Below, piece by piece: positions 240 to 29,810 of a stretch of DNA of 39,304 nt. The notes below the pieces were generated by a model. That model searched no databases and had not been told where the DNA came from. It worked only from the letters and a program-made list of their open reading frames with translations. Origin of the DNA: Myxococcota bacterium (lineage in GTDB: Bacteria > Myxococcota_A > UBA796 > CAJQPC01); NCBI GenBank assembly GCA_036012755.1, contig DASCPX010000203.1, positions 1 to 39,304 on the forward strand, written 5' to 3'. Position 1 is the first letter of the stretch. Each line of letters opens with the position of its first letter. Position numbers and translations under genes: made by a program.

Positions 240-487
240 ACCTTGGCGAGCTGAATCGGTCCATTGCGGGCCGGATCGAGGTCGTGGAAGGCTGGATTGG
301 AGCGGAGTTCGAGCGATGCTGCGGGCTTGCGGTTTCCGGTCATGTCGATGGCGTCGAGTTGGAGGCCTTTCTCGCTCAGTTGGGCTCAGTTGAGCTGGTG
401 GCTTGGAGACCTGGCCTGACCTGATGAGTCGCGCCGATCACGTGTGCCGCCCGGACACGACGTCGGCTAACAGGCGGGTCTACCGCA

Positions 488-505
488 GGGCCGGCAAGCC
501 GGCCC
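488..505. terminator. GC-rich hairpin downstream of the MopE-repeat gene
   Basis: GGGCCGG-CAAG-CCGGCCC perfect inverted repeat 60 bp past the stop at 565; no clear U-tract. Confidence 0.35.
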
Positions 506-564
506 GGAGCGCGTCGCATGGGCGTTGACGGCGCAGGTCGAAGGCTCCTGATGACCACGTCCCA

Positions 565-3318
565 TCAGAGCTCGGTTGCTGCGACCGTGGTCTTGATGTC
601 GAAGCCCGAGTAGCTCCCGTAGTTGAGGTTGATCGTGCTCCCGACGGCAGTCCCCGAGGGGTTCCCCGCCTTGTAGAGGTAGCCGACCTGCACCCCGAGC
701 CCAGTCACCGTCTTGTTCGAAGCCGTGCCTGCCGAGAAGTAGGCGGTGCACCCGTTGTGGCTGGACACCAGCCCGTAGTAGTTCCCGCTCTCGACGGGGA
801 TCTGGATGCTGATTTGAGACGTCGAGGTCGTGTCCTCGACGCTCCAGAGAACCGTCCAGTTGCCGCCCGTCGCGGCGTTGTTCGTCACGAGGAACATGTC
901 CGAGCCGCAGCCGGAGCTGTAGTCGTTCGTCGCGATCTTCGCGGAATCGAGGGTTCCGTTCGTCGTCGCCGAGATCACCGTTCCGATGACGCCGCTGTAG
1001 GAGTAGCCGGAGCTGCTGGCTCCGATGGTGGACGACACCGAGGTGCCGCACGTCCCGCCGGTGCACCGGAAGCTCGCGCCGTCCTCGGCCATGTAGGCTG
1101 CGCCGTCCTCTGTCGTGATGTCGTACAGGCTGTTGTCGTCGCCGCCGCCGCTGGTTCCGAAGTCCACGTTCGCGATGGTGACGAAGACGTCGTCCGCCAC
1201 GAACAGGCCCCCTTCCTCGCCACCGTCGGTATTGCTGGTCAGCGCCGAGATGCCGGTGCTGGAACCGGACCAGGTGAAGTCCTCTGCGCCGTCCAGGACG
1301 ACGCCTCCCCCGCTGCCCGTCGCGGTGTTCGAGTCCACGACGACATCGTCCAGGTCGAGGACCGCCTCCGATGCGTAGATGCCGGCCCCGCCGCCCGCAG
1401 TGTTCGAGCTGAACTCGGAGTCCGTGATGGTCACGTCGCATTCGTAGGCGAAGAGCCCGCCGCCGTAGGAGCCGGCGTCGTTGCTCTCGACGATCACCGC
1501 GTCGAGTTCGAGCTCGACCCCCGTACTGCCCTCGCATTGGATTCCACCTCCGGTCTGTGTGGAGGTGTCCCAGTACACCGAGGCGTCCGCTTGCCCGTTC
1601 TGGAGCGTCAGGCCTGAAAGGGACGCCGCGACACCGTCGGTCGTGAGGCGGACCACCGAGCCGGCACCGGCCCCATCCAACACGGTCGTGGTGGGGTCGC
1701 CATCGTAGCTCGAGACATCGATGTCACTCGTCAGATCGAGCAGCACGTAGAAGGTCCCGTCACAGAAGACCAGGTCCTCTGTGGGCGCATAGGACGCGGG
1801 CGACGACGAGGTGCCCGTGACGGAGGAGGTCACGTCCGTGTAGGCGCCGGTGGCGTCCACGGTCGAGGCCATGTCGTCCTCGGTCACCCCGCTGTCGCAG
1901 TCGTTGTCGACGCCGTCACAGATCTCGTCGCCGTCCGGATTGACGTCGTCGTCGTCGTCGTCGCAGTCCTGGTCGTCCTCGACCGTTCCACCAGGCTGGT
2001 CGCAGCTCGTCGAGCTGTCGTCCGGGTCGCCGTAGCCATCGCTGTCGTCGTCGGCGTACCAGGTCGTGGCATCGACCGCGTCGTCCTCGTCGGTGTCGCC
2101 GTCGCAGTCGTCGTCCTCGTCGTTGCAGTACTCGTCGGCCCCTGGGTACTGGTCGCCGTCGGCGGGATCGCAGTCGTCGTCGCTGGACGCGTAGCCGCTG
2201 GGGAGCTCGCAGGTCTGCGTGGTGTTGTCCGGGTCGCCGTAGCCGTCCGAGTCTGCGTCCTCGTACCAGGTCGTGGGGTCGACTGCGTCGTCCTCGTCGG
2301 TGTCACCGTCGCAGTCGTCGTCCTCGTCGTTGCAGTACTCGTCGGCCCCCGGGTACTGGTGCCGGTCGTCGTCGTCACAGTCCGAGTCGTCCGCGACGCT
2401 GCCCTCGGGTTGGGCACAGCTGGGGGCGCTCGCCGACGCGTCGCCGTAGCCGTCCGCGTCGCTGTCCGCGTACCAGGTGGCGGCGTCCACGGCGTCGTCC
2501 TCGTCCACGTCACCGCGGCAGTCGTCGTCCTCGCCGTTGCAGTACTCGTCGGCCCCAGGGAACTGTGCCCCATCGTCGGGATCGCAGTCCTCGTCGTTGG
2601 CGGCGTAGCCGCTCGGGAGTTCACAGGCGGTGGTGGTCGATGCGGCGTCGCCGTAGCCGTCGCCGTCGGTGTCCGCGTACCAGGTCTCCGCGTCGGTCGC
2701 GTCGTCCTCGTCCAGAGCTCCGTCGCAGTCGTCGTCCTCGCCGTTGCAGTATTCGAGGGCGTCGGGGTGCTGCTCGGGGTCCCCGTCGTCGCAGTCCTCC
2801 GCGTTCTCGGCGTAGCCTTCGGGGAGCACACAGACCTGCGAGACGGCATCCGGGTCGCCGTAGCCGTCCTGATCCACGTCAGCGTAGAAGGGGGTTCCGG
2901 TGCTCGCATCGAGGTCGCCGTCGTCGTCGTCGATGGACTCGTCACAGTCGTTGTCGATCCCGTCGCACACCTCGACGTTGCCTGGGAAGTTGGCGCCCTG
3001 GCCGTCGTCGCAGTCGCCGGCCTCGGCGGCGTAGCCATCGGGCACCTCGCAGGCGTGCACGGTCGTCAGCTGGTCGTCGCCAACGCCGTCGCCATCTCCA
3101 TCCACGTAGAACATCGCTCCGGTGCCCTCGTCGACGGACCCATCGCAGTCGTCGTCGGCTCCGTTACAGACCTCTGTGGCGCCCGGGAAGCGGGCGGCGT
3201 TCCCATCGTCGCAGTCCTCTTCTGCGGCGTAGCCATCGCGGTCCTCGTCGCCGATGTAGCAGGCCGTCATCAGCGGCACGAGAGAGAACGCAGCGATGTT
3301 CAGCCAGCGAGGAGACAT
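565..3318 (-). CDS. Lipoprotein with 7 MopE-type putative metal-binding (DCDD...PGAxExCNGxDDDCDG) repeats followed by a pectin-lyase-like parallel beta-helix region
   Basis: Start ATG 3318 with a GAAGGGG RBS. Signal MSPRWLNIAAFSLVPLMTAC. Repeated WYxDxDGDGYGD/DCDD units. 'TTVLDGAGAGSVV', 'GLTLQNG' and 'N.A...GGG' beta-helix signatures. Confidence 0.85.
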   Translation of the reverse strand: MSPRWLNIAAFSLVPLMTACYIGDEDRDGYAAEEDCDDGNAARFPGATEVCNGADDDCDGSVDEGTGAMFYVDGDGDGVGDDQLTTVHACEVPDGYAAEAGDCDDGQGANFPGNVEVCDGIDNDCDESIDDDDGDLDASTGTPFYADVDQDGYGDPDAVSQVCVLPEGYAENAEDCDDGDPEQHPDALEYCNGEDDDCDGALDEDDATDAETWYADTDGDGYGDAASTTTACELPSGYAANDEDCDPDDGAQFPGADEYCNGEDDDCRGDVDEDDAVDAATWYADSDADGYGDASASAPSCAQPEGSVADDSDCDDDDRHQYPGADEYCNDEDDDCDGDTDEDDAVDPTTWYEDADSDGYGDPDNTTQTCELPSGYASSDDDCDPADGDQYPGADEYCNDEDDDCDGDTDEDDAVDATTWYADDDSDGYGDPDDSSTSCDQPGGTVEDDQDCDDDDDDVNPDGDEICDGVDNDCDSGVTEDDMASTVDATGAYTDVTSSVTGTSSSPASYAPTEDLVFCDGTFYVLLDLTSDIDVSSYDGDPTTTVLDGAGAGSVVRLTTDGVAASLSGLTLQNGQADASVYWDTSTQTGGGIQCEGSTGVELELDAVIVESNDAGSYGGGLFAYECDVTITDSEFSSNTAGGGAGIYASEAVLDLDDVVVDSNTATGSGGGVVLDGAEDFTWSGSSTGISALTSNTDGGEEGGLFVADDVFVTIANVDFGTSGGGDDNSLYDITTEDGAAYMAEDGASFRCTGGTCGTSVSSTIGASSSGYSYSGVIGTVISATTNGTLDSAKIATNDYSSGCGSDMFLVTNNAATGGNWTVLWSVEDTTSTSQISIQIPVESGNYYGLVSSHNGCTAYFSAGTASNKTVTGLGVQVGYLYKAGNPSGTAVGSTINLNYGSYSGFDIKTTVAATEL

Positions 3319-3343
3319 GGGCCCCTTCAGAGGGTGGTCCACT

Positions 3344-5173
3344 CTACTCTGGCCGACGACGCACCAACATGGCCATCAACAGGGCGAAGAGCCCCACGCC
3401 GCCGGCGCCTGCGCCAGTGGTGCAGCGACAGCCGGGGCCACCCTTGACGTTCGCGTCGAATGACACGCAGGCATCTCCGGTCCCCGGGGTCCCGTAGTTG
3501 CAGTCCTCTGCGTCGTCTTCGCCGCGAGCGAACTCCTGGGAGAACCCGGCTTCACACCAGGCATCCAGCGGATCGTTGTCGGTAGCCGGATCGGAGCTGG
3601 AGGCGACGTCGAACACGAGCGAGTGGCCCTGCCGGACCCCCTGCACGTCGAGATCGTAGGAGAAGGTGTCGATCTCGAGCTCGCCCAGCCCGGTCGAGGC
3701 GTCAGGACAGACCAGGGAGACAGTGCGGGTCCCCGTGTTGGGCAGGGAGAGCCCCGAGAGTGGGACCTCGCCCTCCGTGCAGTCCGGCACTCCGCCGGTG
3801 TCTCCGCCCTCGCCGCCGAGCAGGCAGCCGCCGCTGGTCAGCGCCAGGCTCTGGCCAGCCGCCAGGGCCACTTCACCAATCTGTGTCGTGTCGACGGAGT
3901 CGTCGTCGGCGACCTGGACGGTGCAGCCCTCGAGCTCCAGGTCCCCACTTGTCGTGTTGGTCACCTCGAGCCACTCGGAGAGTCCCGCCGGGTTCGCCAT
4001 CACCTCGCTGAAGACGACCTCGCCGACGGCGGGGTTGTCGAAGACCGCGCAGCCGTTGACCTCGCCCGGAGTGGCACGGACCGTGTTGCCGTCGTCGTCT
4101 GCCACCTCAGCGTCGCCCAGGCACCACTGGCCGAGGTCGTCGTTGGTCGACGGATCGTAGGACGACGGGCTGAGCTGGACACTGCAGGAGACATCCTCCG
4201 GGCAGCGATCTTCGAAGAGAGACCAGTCCAGCGGCGCGGTGTCGACCGCCAGGCCGTCACAGATCAACGACAGCCAGCGGGCCTCGCTGTTGGACTGGGA
4301 CAGGCCCGAGTAGGTCCCCGCCGCGTCGACATAGAGGAGGTCCCCGCGGGAGAAGACGGCGTGCTCACCACCGGCGAGCTCGATGATCGCCCCCTCGATC
4401 TCTTTTTCGTCACTGATGCAGTCGGGGTTCGTCGTGTCGGCGCAGGCCCCGATGGCCAGGAAGCAGCCGGTCAGGTTGCAGGCATCGCCGGAGCGCCCCG
4501 CGAGCTCGATCCACTCGTCCGAGGAGTTCGGCGGATCCGCCATCAGCTCGCTGATCACGACCTCGCCCGCCTCGCACAGAGGGGGTGGGGCGACGCAGAC
4601 ATTGGCTGCACCCGGCGTGCCCACGGCGTCGCCGCCGACCTGGTCCAGGTAGACCTCGTCCTCTGGAGGGATGCACCAGTTGTCGAGGTCGTCGTTGTCC
4701 GTGTCGGACATGGTGTCCTGACCTAGGTTGATCGCGCAGCTGTCCCCCGCACAGAGCCCCGAGAACTCGCTCCAGTCATAGGGCGCTTCGTCCACGAGCG
4801 TGCCGCCACAGGTGATCGACAGGGTCTCCGCGGCGGAGTCGTTGAAGCCCAGTGACGGGTAGTAGTAGGCAGGCTCCACCGAGCAGTCCTCGACCACGCA
4901 GTAGTCCGAGGAGTCGGAGCCGGGCCGGTAGCCCAGGACCGTGAAGTCCTCTCCCGGGATCAGGACCGTGTCCGAGATCGTGTGTGCGTTCGTAGTCCCG
5001 CCGTCGGAGCCCTCTGTGAGGACACAGCCGTCCAGATCCCACTCTGTCTGCGTGGGATTGTAGACCTCGAACCACTCGCGCACACCGCTGGGTGCGCTGA
5101 CGTGGATCTCGCTGATGACGAGCTCTCCTTCACCGGGGGCGTCGGCGAGTGCCAGGGTGATCGTCAGGAGCAT
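3344..5173 (-). CDS. Secreted protein with three lamin-tail domains and C-terminal MYXO-CTERM-like anchor
   Basis: Three 'GE(L/V)V(I/F)SE(I/L/V)...EW.E' units, each ending 'NDD...WC...(G/A)TPG'. C-terminus GCRCTTGAGAGGVGLFALLMAMLVRRR. ATG 5173 overlaps the upstream stop (TGATG). Confidence 0.85.
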   Translation of the reverse strand: MLLTITLALADAPGEGELVISEIHVSAPSGVREWFEVYNPTQTEWDLDGCVLTEGSDGGTTNAHTISDTVLIPGEDFTVLGYRPGSDSSDYCVVEDCSVEPAYYYPSLGFNDSAAETLSITCGGTLVDEAPYDWSEFSGLCAGDSCAINLGQDTMSDTDNDDLDNWCIPPEDEVYLDQVGGDAVGTPGAANVCVAPPPLCEAGEVVISELMADPPNSSDEWIELAGRSGDACNLTGCFLAIGACADTTNPDCISDEKEIEGAIIELAGGEHAVFSRGDLLYVDAAGTYSGLSQSNSEARWLSLICDGLAVDTAPLDWSLFEDRCPEDVSCSVQLSPSSYDPSTNDDLGQWCLGDAEVADDDGNTVRATPGEVNGCAVFDNPAVGEVVFSEVMANPAGLSEWLEVTNTTSGDLELEGCTVQVADDDSVDTTQIGEVALAAGQSLALTSGGCLLGGEGGDTGGVPDCTEGEVPLSGLSLPNTGTRTVSLVCPDASTGLGELEIDTFSYDLDVQGVRQGHSLVFDVASSSDPATDNDPLDAWCEAGFSQEFARGEDDAEDCNYGTPGTGDACVSFDANVKGGPGCRCTTGAGAGGVGLFALLMAMLVRRRPE

Positions 5174-7392
5174 CAGAACCTCCACTCGACCGAAGCCCGG
5201 ACGAGTCCATACAGACTGCCGGGCTCTGCGAGCTCGTTGTCGTTTGTGTCGGTGGCCACGCAGCTGCCTTCCAGCTCGGGCAGGCCGGCCCGTGAGCATG
5301 CATCAGCCCAGTCGGCCTCGGGATCCGCCAGGTTCTTGCCGACCGTGCCGCGGACCGAGAGGCGCACTCGGCGCTCCGGGAGCTTCTGGTCGAGCTGCAG
5401 GTAGCTCTCCACGTAGCGCTCTCCGTGGCTGCCGTGGACGCTGTCGTCCAGGTACTTGACGCGCCACTGCAGGCCGGTGTTCGGGGTCGGCTTGACCTGG
5501 GCCTTGACCCAGACGTACTGCCCGATCTGGAACCAGTACTCGCAGGGGCCGATCCCGTCGAGGGTCGGGTAGAGCAGGCCGGTGTCCTCGTAGTAGCGCT
5601 TGTAGAAGGCGGTCAGGGTGAGGACGCGCAGGGACTCGTTTCGGACCTCGCCGCCCCAGGTGGTCCGGATACCAGCGCGGTCGGTGACCTCGATGTCGTC
5701 CAGGTCTTCGCCGCTGTACTCGGCGAAGGCGTCGTACTCACCGCCGTAGACGTAGCCGCGGCCGTTCCGGCTCAGGTCGCGGTTCTTGTAGTCGGCGAAG
5801 GCGGCCAATCGCCAGTCATCGCGGGTGTGGGTCACCCGCCCGTAGGCCTCTGAGTTCCAGCGGGCGACGCTGATGTTCTGCCAGAGGTCGAGGCGCCCCC
5901 GCAGGCTCCAGCCGATCGCTGGATCCAGCTGGGTCTTCAGCAGGATCCCCTGCTCGTCTCGATCCCGGTAGCCCTGGACCTCGTCCGCGTTGGCCGTGCC
6001 CCTGGCGTGGGGGTTGTCGAAGTCGACGTCGTAGCGCCGAAGCGTCACGTCGAACTCGCCCCAGCCCTGGTCGACGACTGCCTGGAGCGAGTAGCCGTTG
6101 CCCCCGGTGAAGCTGGTGGCGACCTCTGCGCGGAGCTCGGCCAGACCCACCATCGCGCCGCCGTGGACGCCCGCCGCGCCGTAGTAGTCCTCTACCGGGT
6201 AGCCCCCCCGGAGCACGAGGTCGTAGTCGCTCTCGGCGCCATCGAGGAGGGTCCGGTCCATGTGCCCGGCCCAAGCGGTGGCGCCGACATAGTGGAGGCC
6301 GTGACCCAGGCGCAGGGTGGCGTCCGCCCCCAAGAGGTCCTCTCGGTAGACATCCGGAATGGTGACGTACTGGGTCTTCTGGTAGTTGCCCTCGCGGTCG
6401 AGGACGTAGACCCGGGGGCTCGTGAGCTCGTCGGACTCGGGGTCGACGACATCGCCCTCCCCCAGCCCGAGGTCGTACTGGTAGACGTCGTAGCGCCAGC
6501 TGCTGGCGAAGAGCGTCGTCTCGAGGACGTGCTCGCCGACGGGCGTGCGCATCTGCACGGCGCCACCGAAGAGGCCCCTCGCGCTGCGGTAGTGCTCCGT
6601 ACCGCTGAGCTCGAGATCCCGGTACCAGCCCTCCGGGTTGCGCCTGGAGGAGCGGTCGAAGGTGAGCCCGTTGCCGAAGCCGACGTTGTAGGAGCCCATG
6701 ATCGCGCTGACCCGCTGCCGCTCGATCGAGGCGAAGCCCTTGGCGAAGGTGAAGGTCGGCGTGCCCCAGCCGACGTAGACGTCCCCTCGCTCGGCGTCGA
6801 ACTGGACGTCGCGCACGTCCTCCTGGGCGTAGCCAGCGAAGCCCACGGTCCAGTCCTTGTCGTAGCGGACGGTGGTCTTGAGGTAGGTCGAAGGCAGGCG
6901 CTCGTAGCCAAGGTCGGAGAGCCGGTGGGAGCGGTTGGGGTGGTCGTCCTCGATGGCGGGTTCGGCTTGTTCGAGAGCCAACACCGTGCGCACGCGGGTG
7001 ACCCCATGCAGCGGTGGCACGGAGGTGATGCGGACCTCGACGAAGGGGGCGATCTGCTCGACCACGTTGGCGTCGACGCCCTCGATCGAGAGCAGGTCCT
7101 CTACGCGGTCGAAGCGCCCTCGGCTCCGACGAGCCTCGATGATGCGGGCCGCGGTCTCCGAGCTGACCCCCGGCAGATCCACGAGCTCGCCTCTGCGGGC
7201 CCGGTTCAAGTCGATCGGGTCGTGGAGCAGCTCGAGCAAGGTCTCGTAGTCGTCCGCGGTGAGCAGACCGTCCCGGTAGAGCTGCTCGAGGTCGTCCTCG
7301 TCGTCGACGAGGATGGGCGACGGGTAGACGCGGGCCTGGGCGACCGAGGTCACCAACAGGAGCCCGAGGCCGACGCTAAGGCGCTTCAGCAA
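5173..7392 (-). CDS. ComEA-type helix-hairpin-helix domain fused to a putative outer-membrane beta-barrel
   Basis: Signal peptide ending AQA. 'PIDLNRA...ELVDLPGVS...AARIIEAR..RGRFDRVEDLLSIEGV' HhH. About 600 aa of alternating amphipathic beta-strands. Ends ...RASVEWRF (terminal Phe, Bam-type signal). TTG start overlaps the PLD gene end. Confidence 0.8.
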   Translation of the reverse strand: MLKRLSVGLGLLLVTSVAQARVYPSPILVDDEDDLEQLYRDGLLTADDYETLLELLHDPIDLNRARRGELVDLPGVSSETAARIIEARRSRGRFDRVEDLLSIEGVDANVVEQIAPFVEVRITSVPPLHGVTRVRTVLALEQAEPAIEDDHPNRSHRLSDLGYERLPSTYLKTTVRYDKDWTVGFAGYAQEDVRDVQFDAERGDVYVGWGTPTFTFAKGFASIERQRVSAIMGSYNVGFGNGLTFDRSSRRNPEGWYRDLELSGTEHYRSARGLFGGAVQMRTPVGEHVLETTLFASSWRYDVYQYDLGLGEGDVVDPESDELTSPRVYVLDREGNYQKTQYVTIPDVYREDLLGADATLRLGHGLHYVGATAWAGHMDRTLLDGAESDYDLVLRGGYPVEDYYGAAGVHGGAMVGLAELRAEVATSFTGGNGYSLQAVVDQGWGEFDVTLRRYDVDFDNPHARGTANADEVQGYRDRDEQGILLKTQLDPAIGWSLRGRLDLWQNISVARWNSEAYGRVTHTRDDWRLAAFADYKNRDLSRNGRGYVYGGEYDAFAEYSGEDLDDIEVTDRAGIRTTWGGEVRNESLRVLTLTAFYKRYYEDTGLLYPTLDGIGPCEYWFQIGQYVWVKAQVKPTPNTGLQWRVKYLDDSVHGSHGERYVESYLQLDQKLPERRVRLSVRGTVGKNLADPEADWADACSRAGLPELEGSCVATDTNDNELAEPGSLYGLVRASVEWRF

Positions 7393-7879
7393 GGTCCCAG
7401 ATCTCCGAGAAGACGCGCTCGAACTCGGCGGCCAGCGGCGGGTCCGCCAACAGCAGGAGGTTCTCGCGGTGCAACGTGTTGGCGAAGTCGGTGTAGTTGA
7501 AGGAGCCGGTCAAGACCGTGCCTTCATCGAGCACCGTGAACTTGTGGTGCAGGATCCCGCCCGCGCTCAGGCCCCCGGCGAGTCGCACCTCGACCCCCCC
7601 GGCGATCAGGCGGTTCAGCGTGGGCGCCATGGCGTTGTCGGCCGAGTCGTACTGGCCGCGATCGGCGACGACCTGGACCTCGACCCCGCGCAACGCCGCG
7701 TTCTCCATCGCGTTGGCGATGCCTTCGTGGGTGAAGGTGTAGATGGCGACGTGCACGGTGGAGGTCGCCGCGTCGACCTCCGAGGTCAGGACCTCGGAGA
7801 GATCGGTCTCGCTGGAGAAGAACGGCTGCCGCGAGGAGCAGGCCGAAAGGGCCAGGAGCACGGGCGCGAGGGGGAGCAT
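7376..7879 (-). CDS. Phospholipase D superfamily single-HKD (Nuc/Zucchini-like) lipoprotein, probable nuclease
   Basis: HHKFTVLD-x6-GSFN...RENL motif, 'AIYTFT' and 'RGVEVQVVAD'. Lipobox LSAC. Alternative start at 7930. Confidence 0.85.
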   Translation of the reverse strand: MLPLAPVLLALSACSSRQPFFSSETDLSEVLTSEVDAATSTVHVAIYTFTHEGIANAMENAALRGVEVQVVADRGQYDSADNAMAPTLNRLIAGGVEVRLAGGLSAGGILHHKFTVLDEGTVLTGSFNYTDFANTLHRENLLLLADPPLAAEFERVFSEIWDLAEAP

Positions 7880-7940
7880 GCGTCGGAGGCTCACGAGATC
7901 CCTTGGGCCGTTCGGCGCCGGTGATACCATGCGCGCGCTC

Positions 7941-8915
7941 TCATCCGCTCGTGATCCGCGCGGCGCGCCACTGGCCCAGGAGCTCGGCGAGCTGGTTCGG
8001 GATCTCTTGTGGTCCCGCCAGCATCGCCGGCCGAATCACGCCGGGGAGCGCGCCGAGCAGAGCCCCGAGCGTGGGCACGGCGGGCTGGTCGCCGACGAGG
8101 TGGTGTTGGACGTGCAGGTCGCGACTCCGGCGGTAGAGCACGCCCGGGCGCCGCGGGTGGCTGTGCACGACGACAGCACGCGGCACGTAGCCGACCCGCC
8201 GGCCCCGCCTCCAGTGGAGGTCCTCGCCGATCGGCACCGCGGACAGCGGGTTCTCCAGGAGCGTGTCGCGCCGGTAGAGCGCGAAGACGTTGTCGAGCTG
8301 CTCGACGCGGAAGTGCCCCCGGCCCGGAGGTGTCCATGAAGCGAGGCGGCGGCCGGTCACCGGATCCGCTGTCGGCCATGGCACCTGGCGGCCGAAGACC
8401 GCGTCGTAGCCTCCATCTTCGAGGGCATGCACCAGGGCGCGAACACAACCACGACCGCGCGGGAGGGCATCATCGACGCTCAAGAGCACGTACTCGCCGG
8501 TGGCGTGGCGCACCCCCGCTTGCCGGGTGGCCCCGTGACCGAGCCAGGGCACATCGAGGACCCGATCGCCCTCCACCCGGCCCGACGCGTCCCCGTTGGC
8601 CAGCACGAGGACCTCCATGCAGACATCCTGCTCCCTCAGCGCCTGCAGGCCGATCGGCGTGCGCCGATGGCTGGGGATGATCGCGGTGACCGTGATCCCC
8701 TCTTCCCGCCGAGCGCCGGGGGTGGGCAGGTGCTCGGACAGCGCCGCCGTGAAGCTGGGCGTCCGCGTGACGACCTCGTCCACCAGCGGCACGATCTGGT
8801 CGGCGCGCAGGCGCTTGGGGAAGTCATCGGTCAACTCCAGGCGCACGCTCTCGTTTCGACGGAGGGCCTCTCCGAGCGCGTCGAGGTCCTTCGAAGAGAG
8901 CCCACCAAGCCGCAT
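7941..8915 (-). CDS. Glycosyltransferase family 2 (rhamnosyltransferase-like) with ~70-aa N-terminal extension
   Basis: 'TAIIPSH', 'GHGATRQAGV..ATGEYVLLSVDDALP', 'AVFGRQVP', 'GEDLHW' and 'VVHSH' motifs. Confidence 0.8.
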   Translation of the reverse strand: MRLGGLSSKDLDALGEALRRNESVRLELTDDFPKRLRADQIVPLVDEVVTRTPSFTAALSEHLPTPGARREEGITVTAIIPSHRRTPIGLQALREQDVCMEVLVLANGDASGRVEGDRVLDVPWLGHGATRQAGVRHATGEYVLLSVDDALPRGRGCVRALVHALEDGGYDAVFGRQVPWPTADPVTGRRLASWTPPGRGHFRVEQLDNVFALYRRDTLLENPLSAVPIGEDLHWRRGRRVGYVPRAVVVHSHPRRPGVLYRRSRDLHVQHHLVGDQPAVPTLGALLGALPGVIRPAMLAGPQEIPNQLAELLGQWRAARITSG

Positions 8916-8922
8916 CAGCGGG

Positions 8923-8928
8923 ATGCTA
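8923..8928 (-). promoter_or_regulatory. -10 hexamer TAGCAT positioned for leaderless transcription of the GT2 gene/cluster
   Basis: TAnnnT 7 nt upstream of ATG 8915, with no SD in between. Confidence 0.5.
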
Positions 8929-8971
8929 ACCGCCCGACCGACCGCCCTTCATCGGCACGTCTGGGGGAGAA

Positions 8972-8977
8972 TTGACA
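8972..8977 (+). promoter_or_regulatory. Perfect -35 hexamer TTGACA upstream of prkA
   Basis: TTGACA in the divergent intergenic region; no convincing -10 at 17 bp. Confidence 0.3.
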
Positions 8978-9176
8978 ACTTTCTCCGAAGTCCGGCCCGA
9001 TCCCGTCCGAATCAGGGACCGTAGGGCCTCCATACTCGGGCGGAACCCGGACCTCGGGTCGCGCGGGCAATGATGATGCTCACGGATCACCTCGCGAACC
9101 GCTCTCGCATCCCTGGACTCCAAGCACCTGGCCCACCAGGGACCACCGGTGACTCCACCGACCTCAAGGAGAAGGC

Positions 9177-11222
<2,046 letters not shown>

Positions 11223-12302
11223 ATGCCCCTGAACATCGACAACGATCTCCACCGCTTCCGCCAGATCGTGAAGGGCCGGATCCGAAAGGACCTGAAGCGC
11301 TTCATGAGCTCCGGCGAGATGATCGGGAAGCAGGGGAAGAAGGTCGTGTCGATTCCGCTGCCCCAGATCGCCATCCCCAGGTTCCGCTACGGCAAGAACC
11401 AGGGCGGCGTAGGGCAAGGCGAGGGAGACGGCCAGGGCTCCGGCCAGGGAGAGGCTGGCAACGAAGCCGGTCAGCACGTGCTCGAGGTCGACGTCTCCTA
11501 CGAGGAGCTCGCCGAGATCCTGGCAGAGGAGCTCGAACTCCCGAACATCGAGCCCCGCGGCCAGAAAGAGATCACGACCGCAAAGGACCGCTACACCGGC
11601 ATCTCCCAGCAGGGGCCGGAGTCCCTGCGCCACACCCGGCGGACCTTCCGCGAGGCGCTGAAGCGCCAGATCGCGGGGGGGAACTACGACCCGAAGAACC
11701 CACGGATCGTGCCGGTCAAGGAGGACAAGCGCTACCGCTCCTGGAAGGCGCAGACCCAACCACAGTCTGCCGCGGTGATCATCTACATGATGGACGTCAG
11801 CGGCAGCATGGGGAAGGAGCAGAAGGAGATCGTGCGGCTGGAGGCATTCTGGATCGACACCTGGCTGTCCCACCAGTACAAGAACGTCGACACGCGCTTC
11901 ATCATCCACGACGCCGTGGCCAAGGAAGTGGACCGGCACACCTTCTTCCACACCCGAGAGAGCGGCGGCACGTTGATCTCGTCCGCGTACAAGCTGGCCA
12001 TGCGCATCATCGACGCGGAGTACCCACCGCAGGAGTGGAACATCTACCCCTTCCACTTCAGCGACGGGGACAACTGGAGCTCCAGCGACACGAAGCAGTG
12101 CATGGAGCTCCTGAAGACCCAGATGGTCCCGAAGGTGAACCAGTTCTGCTATGGCCAGGTCGACTCCGAGTACGGGAGCGGCCAGTTCATCAAGGACCTC
12201 GAGCAGAACTTCGGCGAAGAGAAGTTCGTGCGTCTTTCTCGCATAGCAGACCGCGAGGGCATCATGGACTCTATCAAGGACTTCCTCGGGAAGGGCTACT
12301 GA
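11223..12302 (+). CDS. yeaH: YeaH/YhbH (DUF444) vWA-domain protein
   Basis: 'EELELPNI', 'MMDVSGSM', 'ESGGT..SSAY' and '[13 protein letters not shown]'; directly follows prkA. Confidence 0.93.
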
Positions 12303-12303
12303 G

Positions 12304-13814
<1,511 letters not shown>

Positions 13815-13818
<4 letters not shown>

Positions 13819-14262: not shown

Positions 14263-15372
14263 TCAGCAGCGCTGGAAGGTGTGCACCACGAGGATCTCGC
14301 CGGTCTCGGTGTTCACGACACCGACGGCCTCCTCCGAGCACTCGGACATGTCCATGTAGAGCTGGAGCTCCACGTGGTCAGACGGGGCCGCCGTGACCGG
14401 GTCGCGGATGTCCTCGAACATGGTCTCGACCTCTCCGTAGAGCGCCGCGGCCTCGCTCTCGTCCGTGGGGTCCCAGTCGCCGTCCTCGGCGTGCTCGTCG
14501 ATGGCGGTCAGCGTGGTGTCCAACAGCTGCGTGTAGGCACGACCACCGCTGGTCCAGTCACCGACCTGGCGAACGTCCCGGTACTGGCCGGCCTCGCTGT
14601 AGCTGAGGAAGAAGACCTCGTTCCACAGCGCCTCTTCGATGGCGGCGCGAGCCTCGTCGTCGTCCTGCCAGTCTCGGCAGCCCGACAGGCTCAGGGCCTT
14701 CACGTCGGCGAAGGGGGCATCGCTGGTGGTCGTGAGGGCCAACAGCCTGGTGTAGTCCTCTGCGGAGAGGTTCTTGCCGGCCGTGATGCTCAGCTCGCAG
14801 CCTGCCGCGGTGGCGTCGTCACCGACTGCCTCGAGCCGGAGGATCGTCATCGCTGCGTTGCCGATCCAGTAGAGCTCTGAGAGCGCGTGGATGGTCTGGA
14901 TGTCGCCTGCCGCGAGGATGCTGTCGACGGCGCGGCGATCCAGGAGCGCGTCGAGCTCCTGCTCATCGGCTCCGACCACGAAGTCGAGGGTGAGCTCGGC
15001 CTGCTCGGTGGTGAAGGTCACGCCGTCCCAGGTGCCGAGTTCGTCGTCGCCCTCTGGAACCCAGCCGTTGGCGTAGGCGTGTGACTCGAGCTTGGTGAGC
15101 GCGGCCGGGCCGACCCACCAGGAGTCGTCGACCTCTGTGATGTCGTCGAAGGAGCCGGAGTCGAGCTTGTGCTGCATGAGCGCCTTGGCCGCCCGGCGAT
15201 CGAGACCGACGAGGTCGTCGAGGACCGGGAGGTTGGTGCTGTCGTCGTTGACGAAGCGCACGACGCCGACGGCGCCAGGGCTGCCTTGGAGCAGGGTGTT
15301 GTCGATGCCCTTGGCGTGTGCGGCGAAGCCGCCGCTGTTGGAGCCAGAGCAAGCGAGGATCAGGATGAACAT
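14263..15372 (-). CDS. Acidic lipoprotein with two degenerate ComEA-like helix-hairpin-helix repeats
   Basis: GGAGG RBS and MFILILAC start. Repeats 'LDRRAAKAL...FDDITEVDDSWWVGPAALTKL' and 'LDRRAVDSIL...IQTIHALSELYWIGNAAMTIL'. Confidence 0.7.
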   Translation of the reverse strand: MFILILACSGSNSGGFAAHAKGIDNTLLQGSPGAVGVVRFVNDDSTNLPVLDDLVGLDRRAAKALMQHKLDSGSFDDITEVDDSWWVGPAALTKLESHAYANGWVPEGDDELGTWDGVTFTTEQAELTLDFVVGADEQELDALLDRRAVDSILAAGDIQTIHALSELYWIGNAAMTILRLEAVGDDATAAGCELSITAGKNLSAEDYTRLLALTTTSDAPFADVKALSLSGCRDWQDDDEARAAIEEALWNEVFFLSYSEAGQYRDVRQVGDWTSGGRAYTQLLDTTLTAIDEHAEDGDWDPTDESEAAALYGEVETMFEDIRDPVTAAPSDHVELQLYMDMSECSEEAVGVVNTETGEILVVHTFQRC

Positions 15373-15514: not shown

Positions 15515-16033
15515 TCAGTCGGTCTTCACCCCGATGAAGGGCAGCTCCCGGTAGCGCTGAGCGAGGTCGGCGCCATAGCCGAGCACGAAGAGATCCTCGA
15601 TCTCGAAGCCGACATGATCGACGGGGACCTCGACCACCCGCCGTGAGGGCTTGTCCAGGAAAGCGGCGATGCGCAGGCTGGCGGGGGACAGCGAGAGGAT
15701 GTGCTCTCGGGCCCAGGCCAGGGTGCGGCCGGTGTCGATGATGTCGTCGACCAGCAGCACGTGGCGGCCGGTGATCGGATCGCTGAGGTGTTTCTTGACC
15801 TCGATGACCCCGCTCGAGGTCGTGCCAGCGCCGTAGCTGGAAAGCTCGAGGAAGTCCATCTCCACCCTCACGCCGGCGTCGTGCAGCGCGCGGGCAAGGT
15901 CAGCGCAAAAGACCACGCAGCCCTTCAGAGGCCCGACGAGCACGACCTCGTCCGTGGGCAGGGCAGCGGCGATCTCCCGACCCAGCTCGGCGACACGGGT
16001 CTGGATGCGCTCGCGAGAGATCAGGATGTCCAT
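15515..16033 (-). CDS. hpt: Hypoxanthine phosphoribosyltransferase
   Basis: 'MDILISRERIQTRVAELG', 'LKGCVVFCADL', 'SSYG', PRPP-binding 'VLLVDDIIDTGRTL' and 'FVLGYGADLAQRYRELPFIG'. GGAGG RBS before ATG 16033. Confidence 0.95.
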   Translation of the reverse strand: MDILISRERIQTRVAELGREIAAALPTDEVVLVGPLKGCVVFCADLARALHDAGVRVEMDFLELSSYGAGTTSSGVIEVKKHLSDPITGRHVLLVDDIIDTGRTLAWAREHILSLSPASLRIAAFLDKPSRRVVEVPVDHVGFEIEDLFVLGYGADLAQRYRELPFIGVKTD

Positions 16034-18326: not shown

Positions 18327-19481
18327 CTACCGGCGGCGACGAACCCACAGCAGAGCCAGGATCCAGCTGGCACCGATCGCCCCAGAGGAGCAGCCACAGC
18401 CCCCCAGCGGCGTGCGCTCCCCAGGCATCAGGTTCTTGGGATCGCGGCCGTCGTCGGCCGTGTCCCGCTCCGGGTCGCTGTCTCCTGGCGGGTCGCTGTC
18501 TCCTGGCGGGTCGCTGTCTCCTGGCTGCTCCACCTCGCCGACGCACTCGACGCTGAGCGTGAAGTCGCTCTGGGCATCCTCCCAGCCGTCCACGACCGCC
18601 ACGTAGACGTGATCGGCGCTGGCGGACCAGGCGACGGACTCGTCCGAGGCGTCGCTCTCGGAGCTCGATCCGAGACAACCGGAGCCATCGCAAGCGGCGT
18701 CCTCGAGCACGTAGAGGTCAAGGTCGGCGGAGAGCCCGGTCATCCTCACCGTCACGTCCTCGGAGAGCCCGGTGACGACCTCGAAGGCAAGCTCCTTGCC
18801 CGTGTAGGTCCAGTCCTCGCACCCGTACGCCATGTGCTCGGCGTCTCCAGAGGCGTTGCTGCCAGACCAGGTGTCCCCGCAGGTGAGACGGCTGGTGGGA
18901 GAGCACTCGGGCACGTCCTCGCAGACACCGCCAGGCACGCTGCCGTGTGAGCCCTGGGAGACCCAGTAGGAGGGCGGCGAGGAGCAGTCCCCGTAGAAGG
19001 GATCGTGGGCCACCGAGTCGACCCGCACCTCGAAGTGGAGGTGGGGCCCCGTCGAGTAGCCGCTGGAGCCCATCTCGCCGAGCACGGTGCCGCAGGCCAC
19101 GCTGTCTCCCGCGCCGACCGCTACGGACCACTGCTTCAGGTGGGCGTAGTAGGTGACCTTGCCGTCGGGGTGCTCGATCACGACGTAGTTGCCGAAGCCG
19201 CCGCCGCCGTCGCAGTCGCCGGTCGTGCACTCGTCGAACTCGCCGTCGTTGGTGTAGAGCACCGTGCCCGGTGCGGCCGCGACGATGGTCCGACCCTCCT
19301 CCATGCCGTCGAAGCCGCCGCCGCCGAAGTCCGAGCCGTTGTGCCCGGAGTAGCGGATGGACCCGCAGGCCCAGTCGACCCCGCTGTGGTCCTTGTAGGC
19401 AGTGGGGTACATCGAGGAGATGTCGTCGTCGGCCACGGGGAACCGGTAGTCCTGGGCCAGGGCCAGGCCGACGAGGATCAA
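18327..19481 (-). CDS. M23 family metallopeptidase with PPC-like domain and MYXO-CTERM-like anchor
   Basis: HNGSD (HxxxD), 'GFGNYVVIEHPDG..TYYAHL', 'GSSGYSTGPHLHFEVR' (HxH), 'ADLDLYVL' PPC-like motif and a GGCGC...WILALLWVRRRR tail. TTG start overlaps the upstream stop (TTGA). Confidence 0.88.
   Translation of the reverse strand: MILVGLALAQDYRFPVADDDISSMYPTAYKDHSGVDWACGSIRYSGHNGSDFGGGGFDGMEEGRTIVAAAPGTVLYTNDGEFDECTTGDCDGGGGFGNYVVIEHPDGKVTYYAHLKQWSVAVGAGDSVACGTVLGEMGSSGYSTGPHLHFEVRVDSVAHDPFYGDCSSPPSYWVSQGSHGSVPGGVCEDVPECSPTSRLTCGDTWSGSNASGDAEHMAYGCEDWTYTGKELAFEVVTGLSEDVTVRMTGLSADLDLYVLEDAACDGSGCLGSSSESDASDESVAWSASADHVYVAVVDGWEDAQSDFTLSVECVGEVEQPGDSDPPGDSDPPGDSDPERDTADDGRDPKNLMPGERTPLGGCGCSSGAIGASWILALLWVRRRR
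18471..18525. repeat. 3 x 18-bp perfect tandem repeat encoding a PGDSDP linker
   Basis: CGGGTCGCTGTCTCCTGG repeated three times. Confidence 0.9.
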
Positions 19482-26328: not shown

Positions 26329-27279
26329 TCAGCTCGAGAGGATGCCCTCGATCCCGCTCATCACGTCGGGCTCGAGCTTGTCGATGACCTCGAGCGCCGC
26401 GAGGTTCTCGTGGACCTGCTCGACCCGCGAGGCACCCGTGATCACCGTGCTCACGTTGGGGTGCTTCGCCGTCCACGCCAGCGCGAGCTGAGCCATCGTG
26501 CACTCCAACGCCTCCGCGACGGTCTGGAGACGGCGGAGCTTCGGGATCTTGTCGTCGATGCCCTCGAGCACGAGGTCCCGGAGCCAGGCCTCTCGGTGGA
26601 GACGGCTGTCCTCGGGCACCCCGTCGTTGTACTTGCCGGTGAGCAGCCCGCTGGCGAGGGGGCTCCAGGTCGTGGTGCCCAGGCCGTACTCGGCGACCAG
26701 CGGTGAGAGCTCCGTCTCCAGGCGGTCTCGACAGAACATGTTGTATTGAGGCTGCTCCATCGTCGGGCCCTCGAGGCCCAGGCGTTCGGCGGCGGCGTAG
26801 GCCTCCTGCAGCTGCTCCGCGGTCCACTCGCTGGTGCCCCAGTAGAGGATCTTGCCCTGCTGGATCAGCGTGTTCATCGTGCGAACGACCTCGTCGACCG
26901 GCGTGTCGGGGTCGTGGCGATGGCAGAAGTAGAGGTCGAGGTAGTTCACCTGGAGCCGCTTCAGGGCCGCGTGGCAGGCCTCGACGACATGCTTGCGGTT
27001 GAGCCCGACGTCGTTGGGGCCGTCGCCCCCCCAGAAGACCTTCGAAGAGACGACGTAGTCCTGGCGTCGCAGCTCCGAGAGCACGCGACCGACCACGACC
27101 TCTGCGTTTCCGTGGGCGTAGGCCTCGGCGTTGTCGAAGAAGTTGACGCCCTTGTCGAAGGCCGCGAGCAGGCACTGGCGGGTGAGGGCCTCGTCGCACT
27201 GCTTGCCGTAGGTCACCCAGGAGCCGATGGAGAAGCGGGAGACCACGAGCCCGGAGCGGCCGAGGCGGTTGTAGATCAC
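26329..27279 (-). CDS. Aldo/keto reductase (Kv-beta subunit-like)
   Basis: 'YNRLGRSGLVVS...GSWVTYG', 'GVNFFDNAEAY', 'SSKVFWG', 'GKILYWGTSEW' and 'WSPLASGLLTGKY'. GTG start overlaps the upstream stop (GTGA). Confidence 0.92.
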   Translation of the reverse strand: MIYNRLGRSGLVVSRFSIGSWVTYGKQCDEALTRQCLLAAFDKGVNFFDNAEAYAHGNAEVVVGRVLSELRRQDYVVSSKVFWGGDGPNDVGLNRKHVVEACHAALKRLQVNYLDLYFCHRHDPDTPVDEVVRTMNTLIQQGKILYWGTSEWTAEQLQEAYAAAERLGLEGPTMEQPQYNMFCRDRLETELSPLVAEYGLGTTTWSPLASGLLTGKYNDGVPEDSRLHREAWLRDLVLEGIDDKIPKLRRLQTVAEALECTMAQLALAWTAKHPNVSTVITGASRVEQVHENLAALEVIDKLEPDVMSGIEGILSS

Positions 27280-29810
27280 TCGGCGCCCACGAAGGTGAAC
27301 GAGAGGGGTCCGGTGACGTCGAGGGTCTCCAGCGTCGTGCTGTCGTAGGTCCCGCTGGAGCTGCCCGCGTAGAGGTAGCTGTCGGCCGGAGAGGACCAGC
27401 TGCCGCCGTAGTAGTTCACGAACAGCAGCTCTGGCAGGCCGTCTCCGTCGAGGTCCGCGGCGCCGGCGTCCCGCGGGCCGTAGGTCGCCGCCGTCGCGCT
27501 GTCCGCCGAGGACAGCCCGCTGGTGCTCCCGTAGTAGACGTAGCTGGTCGTGCTGTAGCTGCTGGAGGTCCGGTAGACCGGCACGATGAGGTCGTCGACG
27601 CCGTCCGCGTCGAGGTCCGCCGACTCGGGGTAGAGGACACCTTCCGTGGACAGCCCGGTCCGGTCGGAGTCCGAGTACCCGCTGGAGCTGCCCCACCAGG
27701 CGTAGCTGGTCGTGCTGAAGCTGGAGCCGTCGTAGTAGCTGCCAGCGAAGAGATCGGTGTAGCCGTCGTCGTCCCAGTCGCCGCTGGCGAGACCCGCCTG
27801 CCCCGTGCCGCTGAGTCGCTGGCGGTCGCTGTTGCCGAAGCCCGTGCTGCGGTCGTTCCAGTAGACGTGCACGTCGGTGGAGTAGCTGCCGTTGTACCAG
27901 GCGCTGAAGACCAGGTCGGTCAGCCCGTCGCCGTCGAGGTCCTCGTTGATCACGTCCAGCGGGCCCTCGGTGGAGAGGTCGGTGGTGTCGCTGGTGGAGT
28001 AGCCGCTGGAGGAGCCCCAGTAGATGGTCGAGTCCGGGTTGCTGGAGCCGTCCCAGTACTCGGCGAAGACGAGGTCGATGTAGCCGTCCTGATCGAGGTC
28101 CTCGGCCACGCTCTTGCGAGCCCCGTAGGTCTCCAGGTCCGTGCGGTTCGAGGTCGAGAAGCCCGTGGCCGACCCGTAGTAGACGTAGCTGTCGGTGCTG
28201 TAGCCGCTGTTGTAGTAGCTCGCGAAGACGAGGTCTTCGTAGCCGTCCAGATCGAGGTCCTCGATGTCGACGTCCAGAGCCCCGATGGTGTCCACGAGCT
28301 CCCGGTCCGAGGAGGAGTAGCCGCTGGCGGAGCCGTAGTAGATGTAGGAGCTCGCCGAGTAGCTGCCGTCGTAGTAGGTCGCGAAGGCGAGGTCCTGGTA
28401 GCCGTCGCCGTCGATGTCACCGGCCTCCACGTCCCAGGTCCCCGTGGTGGTGACCGTGTCGCTCCAGGAGTCGGAGAACCCGCTCCCGTCGCCGTAGAAG
28501 AGCGCGCTCGAGGTCGTGTAGCTCGACCCCGAGTAGTAGCTCCCGATGGCCAGGTCCATGATGCCGTCGCAGTTCAGGTCCGTGCAGAAGTCGTTGCCGT
28601 CACAGTCCTGGTCGATGCCGTCACCGGGGGTCTCGGTCGCCGTGGAGCCGGGGTAGGCGGTCGAGTCCGAGTCCTCGCAGTCGCTGTCGTCGTCGACGTA
28701 GCCGGAGGGCTCGTCGCAGGAGGTCGTGGTGGTCGAGGAGTCGCCGTAGCCGTCACCGTCGCTGTCCGCGTACCAGGTCTCGGCGTCGAGGCTGTCCGCG
28801 TCGTCGACATCACCGTCGCAGTCGGAGTCCTCGCTGTCGCAGTGCTCGTCGGCTCCCGGGTAGATGTCGGCGTCGCTGTCGTCGCAGTCGGTGGCGTCAG
28901 AGACCTGGGAGCTGTCGCCGTAGCAGCTGATCGTCTCCGTGCTGGCGTCGCCGTAGCCGTCACCGTCGCTGTCGCTGTACCAGGACTGGGCGTCGACGGC
29001 GTCGTCCTCGTCCGTGTCGCCGTCGCAGTCGTCATCGACTCCGTTGCAGCTCTCTGCGGCGTCCGGATTGACCGCGGAGTCGTAGTCGTCACAGTCCCCG
29101 TCTACCTCTGCGTAGCCAGTCGGCAGCTCGCAGGACTCGGCGCTGGCGGAGCTCCCGTAGCCGTCGCCGTCACCGTCTTCGTAGAAGGTCGTCGTCACGC
29201 CCTCGTCGATCTCGCCGTTGCAGTCGTTGTCTGCCTCGTCGCAGACCTCTGGGTTGCCGGGGAAGGCGTTGGCGTCGGTGTCGTCGCAGTCCGTGTCGTC
29301 GGCGACCCAGCCCTCTGGTGGGTTGCAGTCCTCGAGCGGGCTGCTCGCGTCGCCGTAGGTGTCGCCGTCGGCGTCCTCGAACCAGCTCGTCAGGACATCT
29401 TCGTCGACCTCTCCGTCGCAGTCGTTGTCGAGCTCGTCGCACTGCTCACCGGCGTCCGGAAAGACCTCTGCGCTGCTGTCGTCGCAGTCGGTGTCGTCGT
29501 CGACGTAGCCCTCGGGCTGCTCACAGGAGACCGTCGAGCCCGCGGCGTTGCCATAGCCGTCGCCGTCGGCGTCCTGGAACCAGGTGTCACCGACGCCATC
29601 GTCGACCTCGTCGTTGCAGTCGTTGTCGATGTCGTCACAGATCTCGACCGCCTGGGGGTTCACGGCGGGGTCGTTGTCGTCGCAGTCCTCTGTGACGTCG
29701 AAGCCGTCGCCGTCTACATCCGCAGGGGGGCTCGAGTCGTGGACTTCGGTCAGACCGCTGTCGTAGTCCTTCGAGCGGCATGAAATGGCGAGCAGGAGGG
29801 CAAGAGGCAC
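27276..29810 (-). CDS. Lipoprotein with 6 MopE-type repeats and 8 FG-GAP/VCBS-like repeats (beta-propeller)
   Basis: Probable GTG start at 29810 (MPLALLLAISC). DCDD repeats are followed by eight 'D(L/I/W)DxDGxxDL' units with 'YxYYGS..G.S'. Confidence 0.85.
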   Translation of the reverse strand: MPLALLLAISCRSKDYDSGLTEVHDSSPPADVDGDGFDVTEDCDDNDPAVNPQAVEICDDIDNDCNDEVDDGVGDTWFQDADGDGYGNAAGSTVSCEQPEGYVDDDTDCDDSSAEVFPDAGEQCDELDNDCDGEVDEDVLTSWFEDADGDTYGDASSPLEDCNPPEGWVADDTDCDDTDANAFPGNPEVCDEADNDCNGEIDEGVTTTFYEDGDGDGYGSSASAESCELPTGYAEVDGDCDDYDSAVNPDAAESCNGVDDDCDGDTDEDDAVDAQSWYSDSDGDGYGDASTETISCYGDSSQVSDATDCDDSDADIYPGADEHCDSEDSDCDGDVDDADSLDAETWYADSDGDGYGDSSTTTTSCDEPSGYVDDDSDCEDSDSTAYPGSTATETPGDGIDQDCDGNDFCTDLNCDGIMDLAIGSYYSGSSYTTSSALFYGDGSGFSDSWSDTVTTTGTWDVEAGDIDGDGYQDLAFATYYDGSYSASSYIYYGSASGYSSSDRELVDTIGALDVDIEDLDLDGYEDLVFASYYNSGYSTDSYVYYGSATGFSTSNRTDLETYGARKSVAEDLDQDGYIDLVFAEYWDGSSNPDSTIYWGSSSGYSTSDTTDLSTEGPLDVINEDLDGDGLTDLVFSAWYNGSYSTDVHVYWNDRSTGFGNSDRQRLSGTGQAGLASGDWDDDGYTDLFAGSYYDGSSFSTTSYAWWGSSSGYSDSDRTGLSTEGVLYPESADLDADGVDDLIVPVYRTSSSYSTTSYVYYGSTSGLSSADSATAATYGPRDAGAADLDGDGLPELLFVNYYGGSWSSPADSYLYAGSSSGTYDSTTLETLDVTGPLSFTFVGAE

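Follow-up and report, generated by a model that had tools for sequence, protein, structure and literature searches.

A predicted lipoprotein nuclease, a large predicted outer-membrane barrel and a lamin-tail-domain protein form a three-gene module in Myxococcota with a possible role in nucleic acid scavenging

The described system that most resembles the locus examined here is ddbABCDEF, a DNA-utilisation locus of Bacteroides thetaiotaomicron reported to comprise nucleases, an outer-membrane transporter and a surface protein (PMC12478041). Our analysis concerns a 39,304-nucleotide stretch from a Myxococcota bacterium (contig DASCPX010000203.1; hereafter the window), taken from a 6.7 Mb genome that is 96% complete, and within it a module of three genes that encode a predicted lipoprotein nuclease of the phospholipase D type (PLD), a large predicted outer-membrane β-barrel with a helix-hairpin-helix (HhH) fold near its N-terminus, and a protein with three lamin-tail domains (LTDs). 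The likeness to ddb lies in the combination of secreted or lipoprotein nucleases with an outer-membrane transporter and a surface partner, which in Bacteroides is reported to serve nutritional DNA breakdown (PMC12478041). The parts differ: the ddb transporter DdbC is described as TonB-dependent and DdbD as a DUF5689 protein (PMC12478041), two families that none of the five proteins encoded at our locus matched, whereas the module has a predicted 24-stranded barrel with an HhH-fold N-terminal domain and a multi-LTD partner. Because its transporter is not of the TonB type, the module is not a member of the ddb group. We give about an even chance to the reading in which the three genes scavenge nucleic acids through a new type of channel.

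The first-pass annotation of the window had treated five co-oriented genes at positions 565-8915 as one locus for the capture, degradation and import of extracellular DNA. All five open reading frames lie on the minus strand, and the coupling on which that proposal drew is present in the sequence: the stop of the PLD gene (7376-7879, minus strand, 167 aa; the longest reading frame begins at 7930) and the TTG start of the barrel gene (5173-7392, minus strand, 739 aa) overlap by 17 bp (7376-7392), the barrel gene meets the LTD gene (3344-5173, minus strand, 609 aa) in a TGATG at 5171-5175, and a gap of 25 bp (3319-3343) separates the LTD gene from a gene for MopE repeats. The PLD, HhH and MopE-repeat assignments and the three LTDs were likewise all matched by Pfam. 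No sigma-70 promoter was found within 300-9300. RNA data were not listed for 3344-8915, which carries no information about expression.

The conserved unit is smaller than the proposed one. Among close relatives of the barrel (39-61% identity) at 25 GTDB loci, the PLD gene lies directly upstream of the barrel gene in 23, the other two being interrupted by contig ends, and the LTD gene lies directly downstream in all 25. A family 2 glycosyltransferase (GT2) gene, which adjoins the PLD gene in the window, is near the barrel in none of these loci, and MopE repeats occur in 3, never immediately after the LTD gene. The module is thus PLD, barrel and LTD, three genes rather than five, and the suggestion that the MopE protein is part of a surface scaffold finds no support.

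The association extends well beyond close relatives. A barrel profile built from 123 sequences was searched in 301 genomes of the phylum, with three candidates scored per genome, and gave a full-length or near full-length match in 76; the distribution is patchy, with matches in 2 of the 10 genomes of the window's own family. From 58 of the 76 barrel-positive genomes we drew 60 regions and called their genes anew; removal of 2 loci without a barrel call and 6 duplicates from a total of 86 left 78 distinct barrel loci. An LTD gene lies at most two genes from the barrel in 71 of the 78 and a predicted secreted nuclease in 68, every one of which also has the LTD gene. Gene order differs among the loci, the partners being upstream, downstream or divergent, and ten of the 78 have no nuclease. 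As a base rate, 21 of 5138 genes in the source genome have a nuclease within two genes and 18 of 5138 have an LTD gene within that distance; a single gene, the barrel, has both. The PLD-barrel-LTD linkage noticed at first in one genome is conserved among myxobacterial barrel loci.

The nuclease in this arrangement is not always a PLD. Among the 68 loci, a PLD stands alone in 26, a staphylococcal-type nuclease (SNase) alone in 31 and a metallo-beta-lactamase (MBL) alone in 4, while the other 7 have two nucleases (PLD and MBL in 4, SNase and an LTD-PLD protein in 2, PLD and SNase in 1). The SNase neighbours are lipoproteins of the PF00565 family; they occur in 34 of the 78 loci and are the sole small nuclease in 33. 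The MBL neighbours, which match Pfam weakly, are taken here to be ComEC-like on the basis of motifs, from which their activity is presumed as well. Catalytic-type residues are retained in the SNase and MBL neighbours as well as in the PLDs. A FastTree phylogeny of the 78 barrels requires at least four changes of nuclease class and five of LTD anchor type; an apparent pairing of the two, with MYXO-CTERM anchors beside PLD or MBL and lipoprotein anchors beside SNase, was not significant on independent pairs (p 0.5). Unrelated nuclease folds thus fill one slot beside the barrel, and the replacement of PLD by SNase in other lineages is the strongest argument that the slot belongs to a nuclease.

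Presence and absence of the three genes also coincide. In 57 genomes of the same class, 23 with the barrel and 34 without, a single-protein PLD query matched at E<=1e-20 in 13 genomes and the LTD profile matched at E<1e-50 in 20, all of them barrel-positive, and none of the 34 barrel-less genomes reached either value. Both thresholds were set after the scores were seen, and 13 of the 20 LTD-positive genomes had contributed to the LTD profile, which leaves only the negatives as independent observations; weaker LTD matches, at E 1e-39 to 1e-44, occur in three of the barrel-less genomes. PLD, barrel and LTD are kept or lost together in myxobacteria.

For the PLD, the nearest characterised proteins are Nuc, NucT and Zucchini, with which it shares its size, a single HKD motif and all aligned catalytic residues. 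It matches PLDc_2 (PF13091, E 4e-27), and its best PDB match is Nuc (1BYR, E 1.4e-13), relative to which the domain of about 155 aa retains one H-x-K-x4-D-x6-G-S-x-N motif and the downstream Glu; the match to MitoPLD/Zucchini is about equal (E 4e-13). Of 37 PLDs that neighbour barrels, 36 have an unbroken motif, and the PLD of the window is the only one of its type in the source genome, where the search returned a single match. It differs from the characterised enzymes in being a predicted lipoprotein, with a lipobox read from the sequence, that is tied to a barrel operon, and it falls far under the cut-off of the NucT equivalog (48 bits against 225). With Nuc as best PDB match, catalytic residues kept and SNase or ComEC-like MBL in its place elsewhere, the PLD is likely a nuclease, as the first-pass annotation had supposed.

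The LTD protein, the predicted surface-anchored partner of the barrel, is cysteine-rich and very acidic (4.4% Cys, 18% Asp and Glu, 2.6% Lys and Arg), a composition that argues against direct DNA binding. The annotated three LTDs are confirmed as three PF00932 stretches. The proposed MYXO-CTERM-like anchor holds in architecture (3347-3433, minus strand), with a Cys pair, a hydrophobic helix and an Arg cluster, but at 16.3 bits stays under the TIGR03901 cut-off of 20, which 2 of 14 relatives' tails pass (22.6 and 21.6 bits, in loci L001 and L006). Where relatives lack such a tail, most of them carry a lipoprotein-like Cys signal at their start instead, judged by eye, so membrane tethering appears to be conserved while the anchor changes. 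Myxosortase is reported to cleave MYXO-CTERM tags, for which lipidation and surface display by way of type II secretion are predicted (PMC11980579). Within barrel loci, LTDs are also found fused to SNase and to PLD. In the Shewanella nuclease ExeM, the LTD was reported as required for full nuclease activity in vitro and as dispensable for extracellular DNA degradation in vivo (PMC6085458).

The barrel protein consists of a signal peptide, an acidic helical N-terminal domain with a degenerate pair of HhH hairpins, and a predicted 24-stranded β-barrel with long conserved loops (residues 128-738; 5179-7011, minus strand). The AlphaFold model (pLDDT 84.7, pTM 0.83) places 24 long strands after the helical domain, and the sequence ends in WRF, which bears out the earlier view of a probable outer-membrane barrel with a C-terminal Phe. 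A model of a homologue from Emticicia (Bacteroidota) also has 24 strands (pLDDT 91.1). TonB-dependent transporters, DdbC and SusC included, have 22 strands and an N-terminal plug, in contrast to the 24 strands predicted in both models, and no TonB-receptor or plug family was matched by the barrel in Pfam or NCBIfam. Fold searches returned only generic large barrels at 7-11% identity, although a missing fold match is no proof of a new fold. PDB sequence searches with the profiles of both the myxobacterial family and a homologous family in the Fibrobacterota-Chlorobiota-Bacteroidota (FCB) group matched the HhH domain alone and gave no solved relative of the barrel. The positions that face inward, as judged from the alternation of hydrophobic residues, lean slightly to the basic side (18.7% Lys and Arg against 14.0% Asp and Glu), a weak signal taken from this one barrel. 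They include the conserved arginines R452, R519, R644 and R681, and conserved acidic residues lie on strands 8-15. In several VIA alignments, with TonB receptors and VDAC as partners, the match starts at about residue 20, which is no more than a hint that the N-terminal domain might sit in the lumen.

Taken together, the reading that we favour at about even weight is one of feeding on nucleic acids. Extracellular DNA or RNA would be cut by the predicted lipoprotein nuclease; the LTD protein, predicted to be lipid-anchored, would sit on the barrel at the cell surface as a lid or a scaffold; and the fragments would cross the outer membrane as nutrients through the barrel with its 24 predicted strands. 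Here we infer nuclease activity, the surface location of the LTD protein, its contact with the barrel, transport through the pore and the nutritional purpose.

Several points weigh against nucleic acid scavenging. Transport and binding in particular rest on inference, and a clear surface for DNA binding is missing from every component, the HhH domain being both degenerate and acidic and the LTD protein acidic too. Seven of the 78 barrels have neither LTD nor nuclease nearby, and the counts of neighbours come from profiles made from the neighbours themselves, which favours these subfamilies, in related genomes that are not independent. Neither a plug of the TonB type nor a source of energy can be seen, and ExbBD/TonB genes are near only 5 of the 86 loci. 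The weightiest point comes from the FCB homologues. The barrel family aligns with a Bacteroidota/KSB1 family of "HhH domain-containing proteins" (examples are Parabacteroides WP_121956131.1 and Bacteroides WP_237924592.1) over 600 columns at an HHalign probability of 100%, and the two families share the 24 modelled strands and the degenerate HhH; they differ in their neighbours. In 72 FCB loci, myxobacterial profiles, which may be insensitive there, found no LTD, PLD, SNase or MBL gene, and a PorV-like small barrel (NF033709, 62 bits against a cut-off of 90) lies directly upstream in 43 of the 56 distinct FCB barrels that have an upstream gene. As the FCB homologues pair with a PorV-like barrel and not with nucleases, the ancestral job of the barrel need not involve nucleic acids, and this neighbourhood is the main evidence against nucleic acid import as the barrel's general job.

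The same neighbourhood is the main support for a competing explanation, clearly less probable in our judgement than scavenging yet the most serious of its rivals, in which the usher- or Slam-like barrel would export the nuclease, the immunoglobulin-like LTD protein or both, or keep them on display, and DNA would be degraded outside the cell without crossing the pore. PorV belongs to a protein-shuttle family, FCB multi-LTD clusters carry type IX secretion system C-terminal domains (a lead only), and an HhH domain stripped of its DNA-binding residues fits an exporter as well. Chaperone-usher ushers, moreover, resemble the barrel in its predicted 24 strands, and the best fold matches include FimD (Z 15.8, root-mean-square deviation 4.6, 367 aligned residues) and PapC (Z 15.0, 5.2, 362 aligned). 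These matches are generic, however (8-11% identity; TM-scores of 0.31-0.39 normalised by the query), and tie with that of an unrelated porin, OmpM1, at Z 15.1; the barrel has no usher family or sequence match in Pfam, NCBIfam or PDB sequences, and no chaperone or pilin genes occur among its recurrent neighbours. The predicted type II route of MYXO-CTERM proteins to the surface (PMC11980579) also speaks against an exporter, whose cargo would need to alternate between nuclease folds of three unrelated kinds and anchors of two types, and export offers no reason why that cargo should so consistently be a nuclease.

A broader proposal, which we offer tentatively and with clearly less confidence than the scavenging role itself, would make the barrel an undescribed class of outer-membrane channel of Myxococcota and FCB that imports oligonucleotides without pili or TonB. 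The acidic, degenerate HhH domain would then gate a basic-lined pore as a DNA-mimicking plug, and the pore would be fed by a surface multi-LTD lid, which a lipid anchor would tether in myxobacteria and the PorV-like neighbour would hold in place in Bacteroidota.

The first-pass annotation had cast the barrel as a possible pilus-independent nucleic acid channel with a DNA-binding domain of its own. As a ratchet, this ComEA-like HhH domain would pull long DNA into the periplasm, perhaps in the service of transformation. We consider this unlikely. The HhH fold itself is real: residues 59-118 (7039-7218, minus strand) match HHH_3 (PF12836, E 8e-15; 55 bits against a cut-off of 27) and align with the ComEA structures 8DSS, 2DUY and 8DFK, and the position N-terminal to the barrel is the periplasmic side. 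The domain differs from ComEA in lacking the GIG hairpins and the essential lysine, in being acidic and in being fused to a barrel. In that alignment, Ser77 and Thr80 occupy the sites of the hairpin glycine and essential lysine (G60 and K63 in Vibrio cholerae), and Asp107 lies in the second hairpin. Across 123 members of the barrel family, position 77 is Gly in 3, position 80 is Lys in no more than 4 and position 107 is Gly in 3, with Thr or Ser at the hairpin glycine site in 115. The FCB family, by motif-offset mapping, has the corresponding residues in 2, 1 and 7 of 87 members. In ComEA of V. cholerae, the substitutions G60V/E and K63E are reported to abolish transformation (PMC3879209), and Geobacillus ComEA K166A is reported to show no DNA binding (PMC9747964). 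The barrel's HhH also stays below the NCBIfam comEA cut-offs (TIGR01259, 35.6 against 152; TIGR00426, 25.8 against 53), and the median net charge over residues 21-120 is -12 in the family. The domain is therefore likely a structural periplasmic or plug-like one rather than a ratchet of the ComEA type, as judged from these residues.

Nor is a transformation role needed. As the first-pass annotation observed, none of the scanned window genes is comEC or a pilus gene. Elsewhere, the source genome carries a separate canonical ComEA with GIG and lysine, together with comEC, pilQ, pilM, six pilT-family genes and dprA, and because this full pilus/ComEA/ComEC/DprA set is present the barrel need not serve in transformation. 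On the side of the ratchet, human EEPD1, the best PDB match of the HhH domain, likewise has one non-GIG hairpin, and type IV pili are absent from competent Bacteroidota, whose outer-membrane step is described as only partly known (PMC11532111). For Riemerella, however, the outer-membrane step has been attributed to a barrel of the TonB type (PMC8459023; PMC12478041). The Riemerella HhH protein RA0C_RS02645, reported as essential for transformation, with its HhH at residues 236-301 and a predicted periplasmic location of the protein (PMC8459023), was considered and is not equated with the barrel.

Least probable of the explanations is a module acting on lipids or other phosphoesters with the PLD as a phospholipase: single-HKD PLDs include MitoPLD/Zucchini, annotated as a cardiolipin hydrolase and matching as well as Nuc, and MBL activity is read from motifs only, but SNases replace the PLD in many of the loci counted above and the staphylococcal-type nuclease family has no known action on lipids.

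These large outer-membrane barrels form a widespread family, and no solved or characterised member was found; the literature searched, which mostly left out subscription journals and excluded supplements, held no study of the barrel or the operon. Its myxobacterial neighbourhood, in which three unrelated nuclease folds have been recruited beside the barrel, provides a first testable function. Import of nucleic acid fragments would make the barrel a third outer-membrane route besides secretins and TonB-dependent transporters, by which predatory or scavenging myxobacteria could exploit the DNA of their prey; in the case of protein export or display, the barrel would be a new translocon. Among the best 120 matches to a Myxococcaceae-type homologue only metagenome-assembled genomes appeared, so that a Myxococcus orthologue was not found, although this does not prove its absence. 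Cultured gut Bacteroidales carry a homologue, which makes the barrel testable in tractable organisms.

Some barrel loci have further features. One genome (G257) holds three of them (L076, L094 and L109), one of the PLD/MYXO-CTERM type and two of the SNase type. In L064 (4029-6992) and L065 (3815-6877), proteins of about 1000 aa with an LTD and two PLD stretches lie directly downstream of the barrel, besides the SNase. In one clade (L002, L003, L005, L006, L007 and L023), the operon and a TamB gene run divergently, in most cases together with an Omp85/TamA-like gene. In 4 of the 86 loci (15515-16033, minus strand, in the window; L060, L063 and L095), a phosphoribosyltransferase (PF00156), probably for purine salvage, is found no more than about 8 kb from the barrel, and a nucleoside-recognition Gate protein is near the barrel in L022 and L111; these neighbours are weak hints at nucleotide salvage. 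Database records L001-L025 that carry the operon often name uncultured Enterobacterales, Rickettsiales or Pseudomonadota in their titles; several of them are identical in sequence to genomes in the window's class, and the oddly titled records are probably mislabelled metagenome-assembled genomes.

Additional HhH proteins were also encountered. A predicted lipoprotein at 14263-15372 (minus strand) of the window has two HhH-like repeats by eye, no Pfam match and no second copy in the genome; in L119, a homologue with 44% identity is placed five genes away from the barrel. A canonical two-domain ComEA at L121:1216-2741 (G000:C183:78447-79972) stands beside a secreted ComEC-like MBL, far from comEC. 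A 740-aa lipoprotein-like protein (G000:C47:110916-113138) has a ComEA-type HhH (residues 575-649) in which the first GIG hairpin and lysine are kept.

The two outer genes of the original five were rejected as module parts, neither being a conserved neighbour in the 25 loci. These are the GT2 gene (7941-8915, minus strand; Pfam Glycos_transf_2) and the MopE-repeat gene (565-3318, minus strand), in which Pfam finds six MopE stretches. The latter and 27276-29810 encode two MopE-repeat lipoproteins of a family with dozens of members in the genome, where 42 of 5724 called genes are MopE-like, and this abundance makes a MopE neighbour plausibly a matter of chance. A M23 peptidase at 18327-19481 (minus strand) has a MYXO-CTERM-like tail by eye. 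Divergent from the locus, positions 9177-13818 on the plus strand hold an ordinary operon of PrkA, DUF444 and SpoVR genes.

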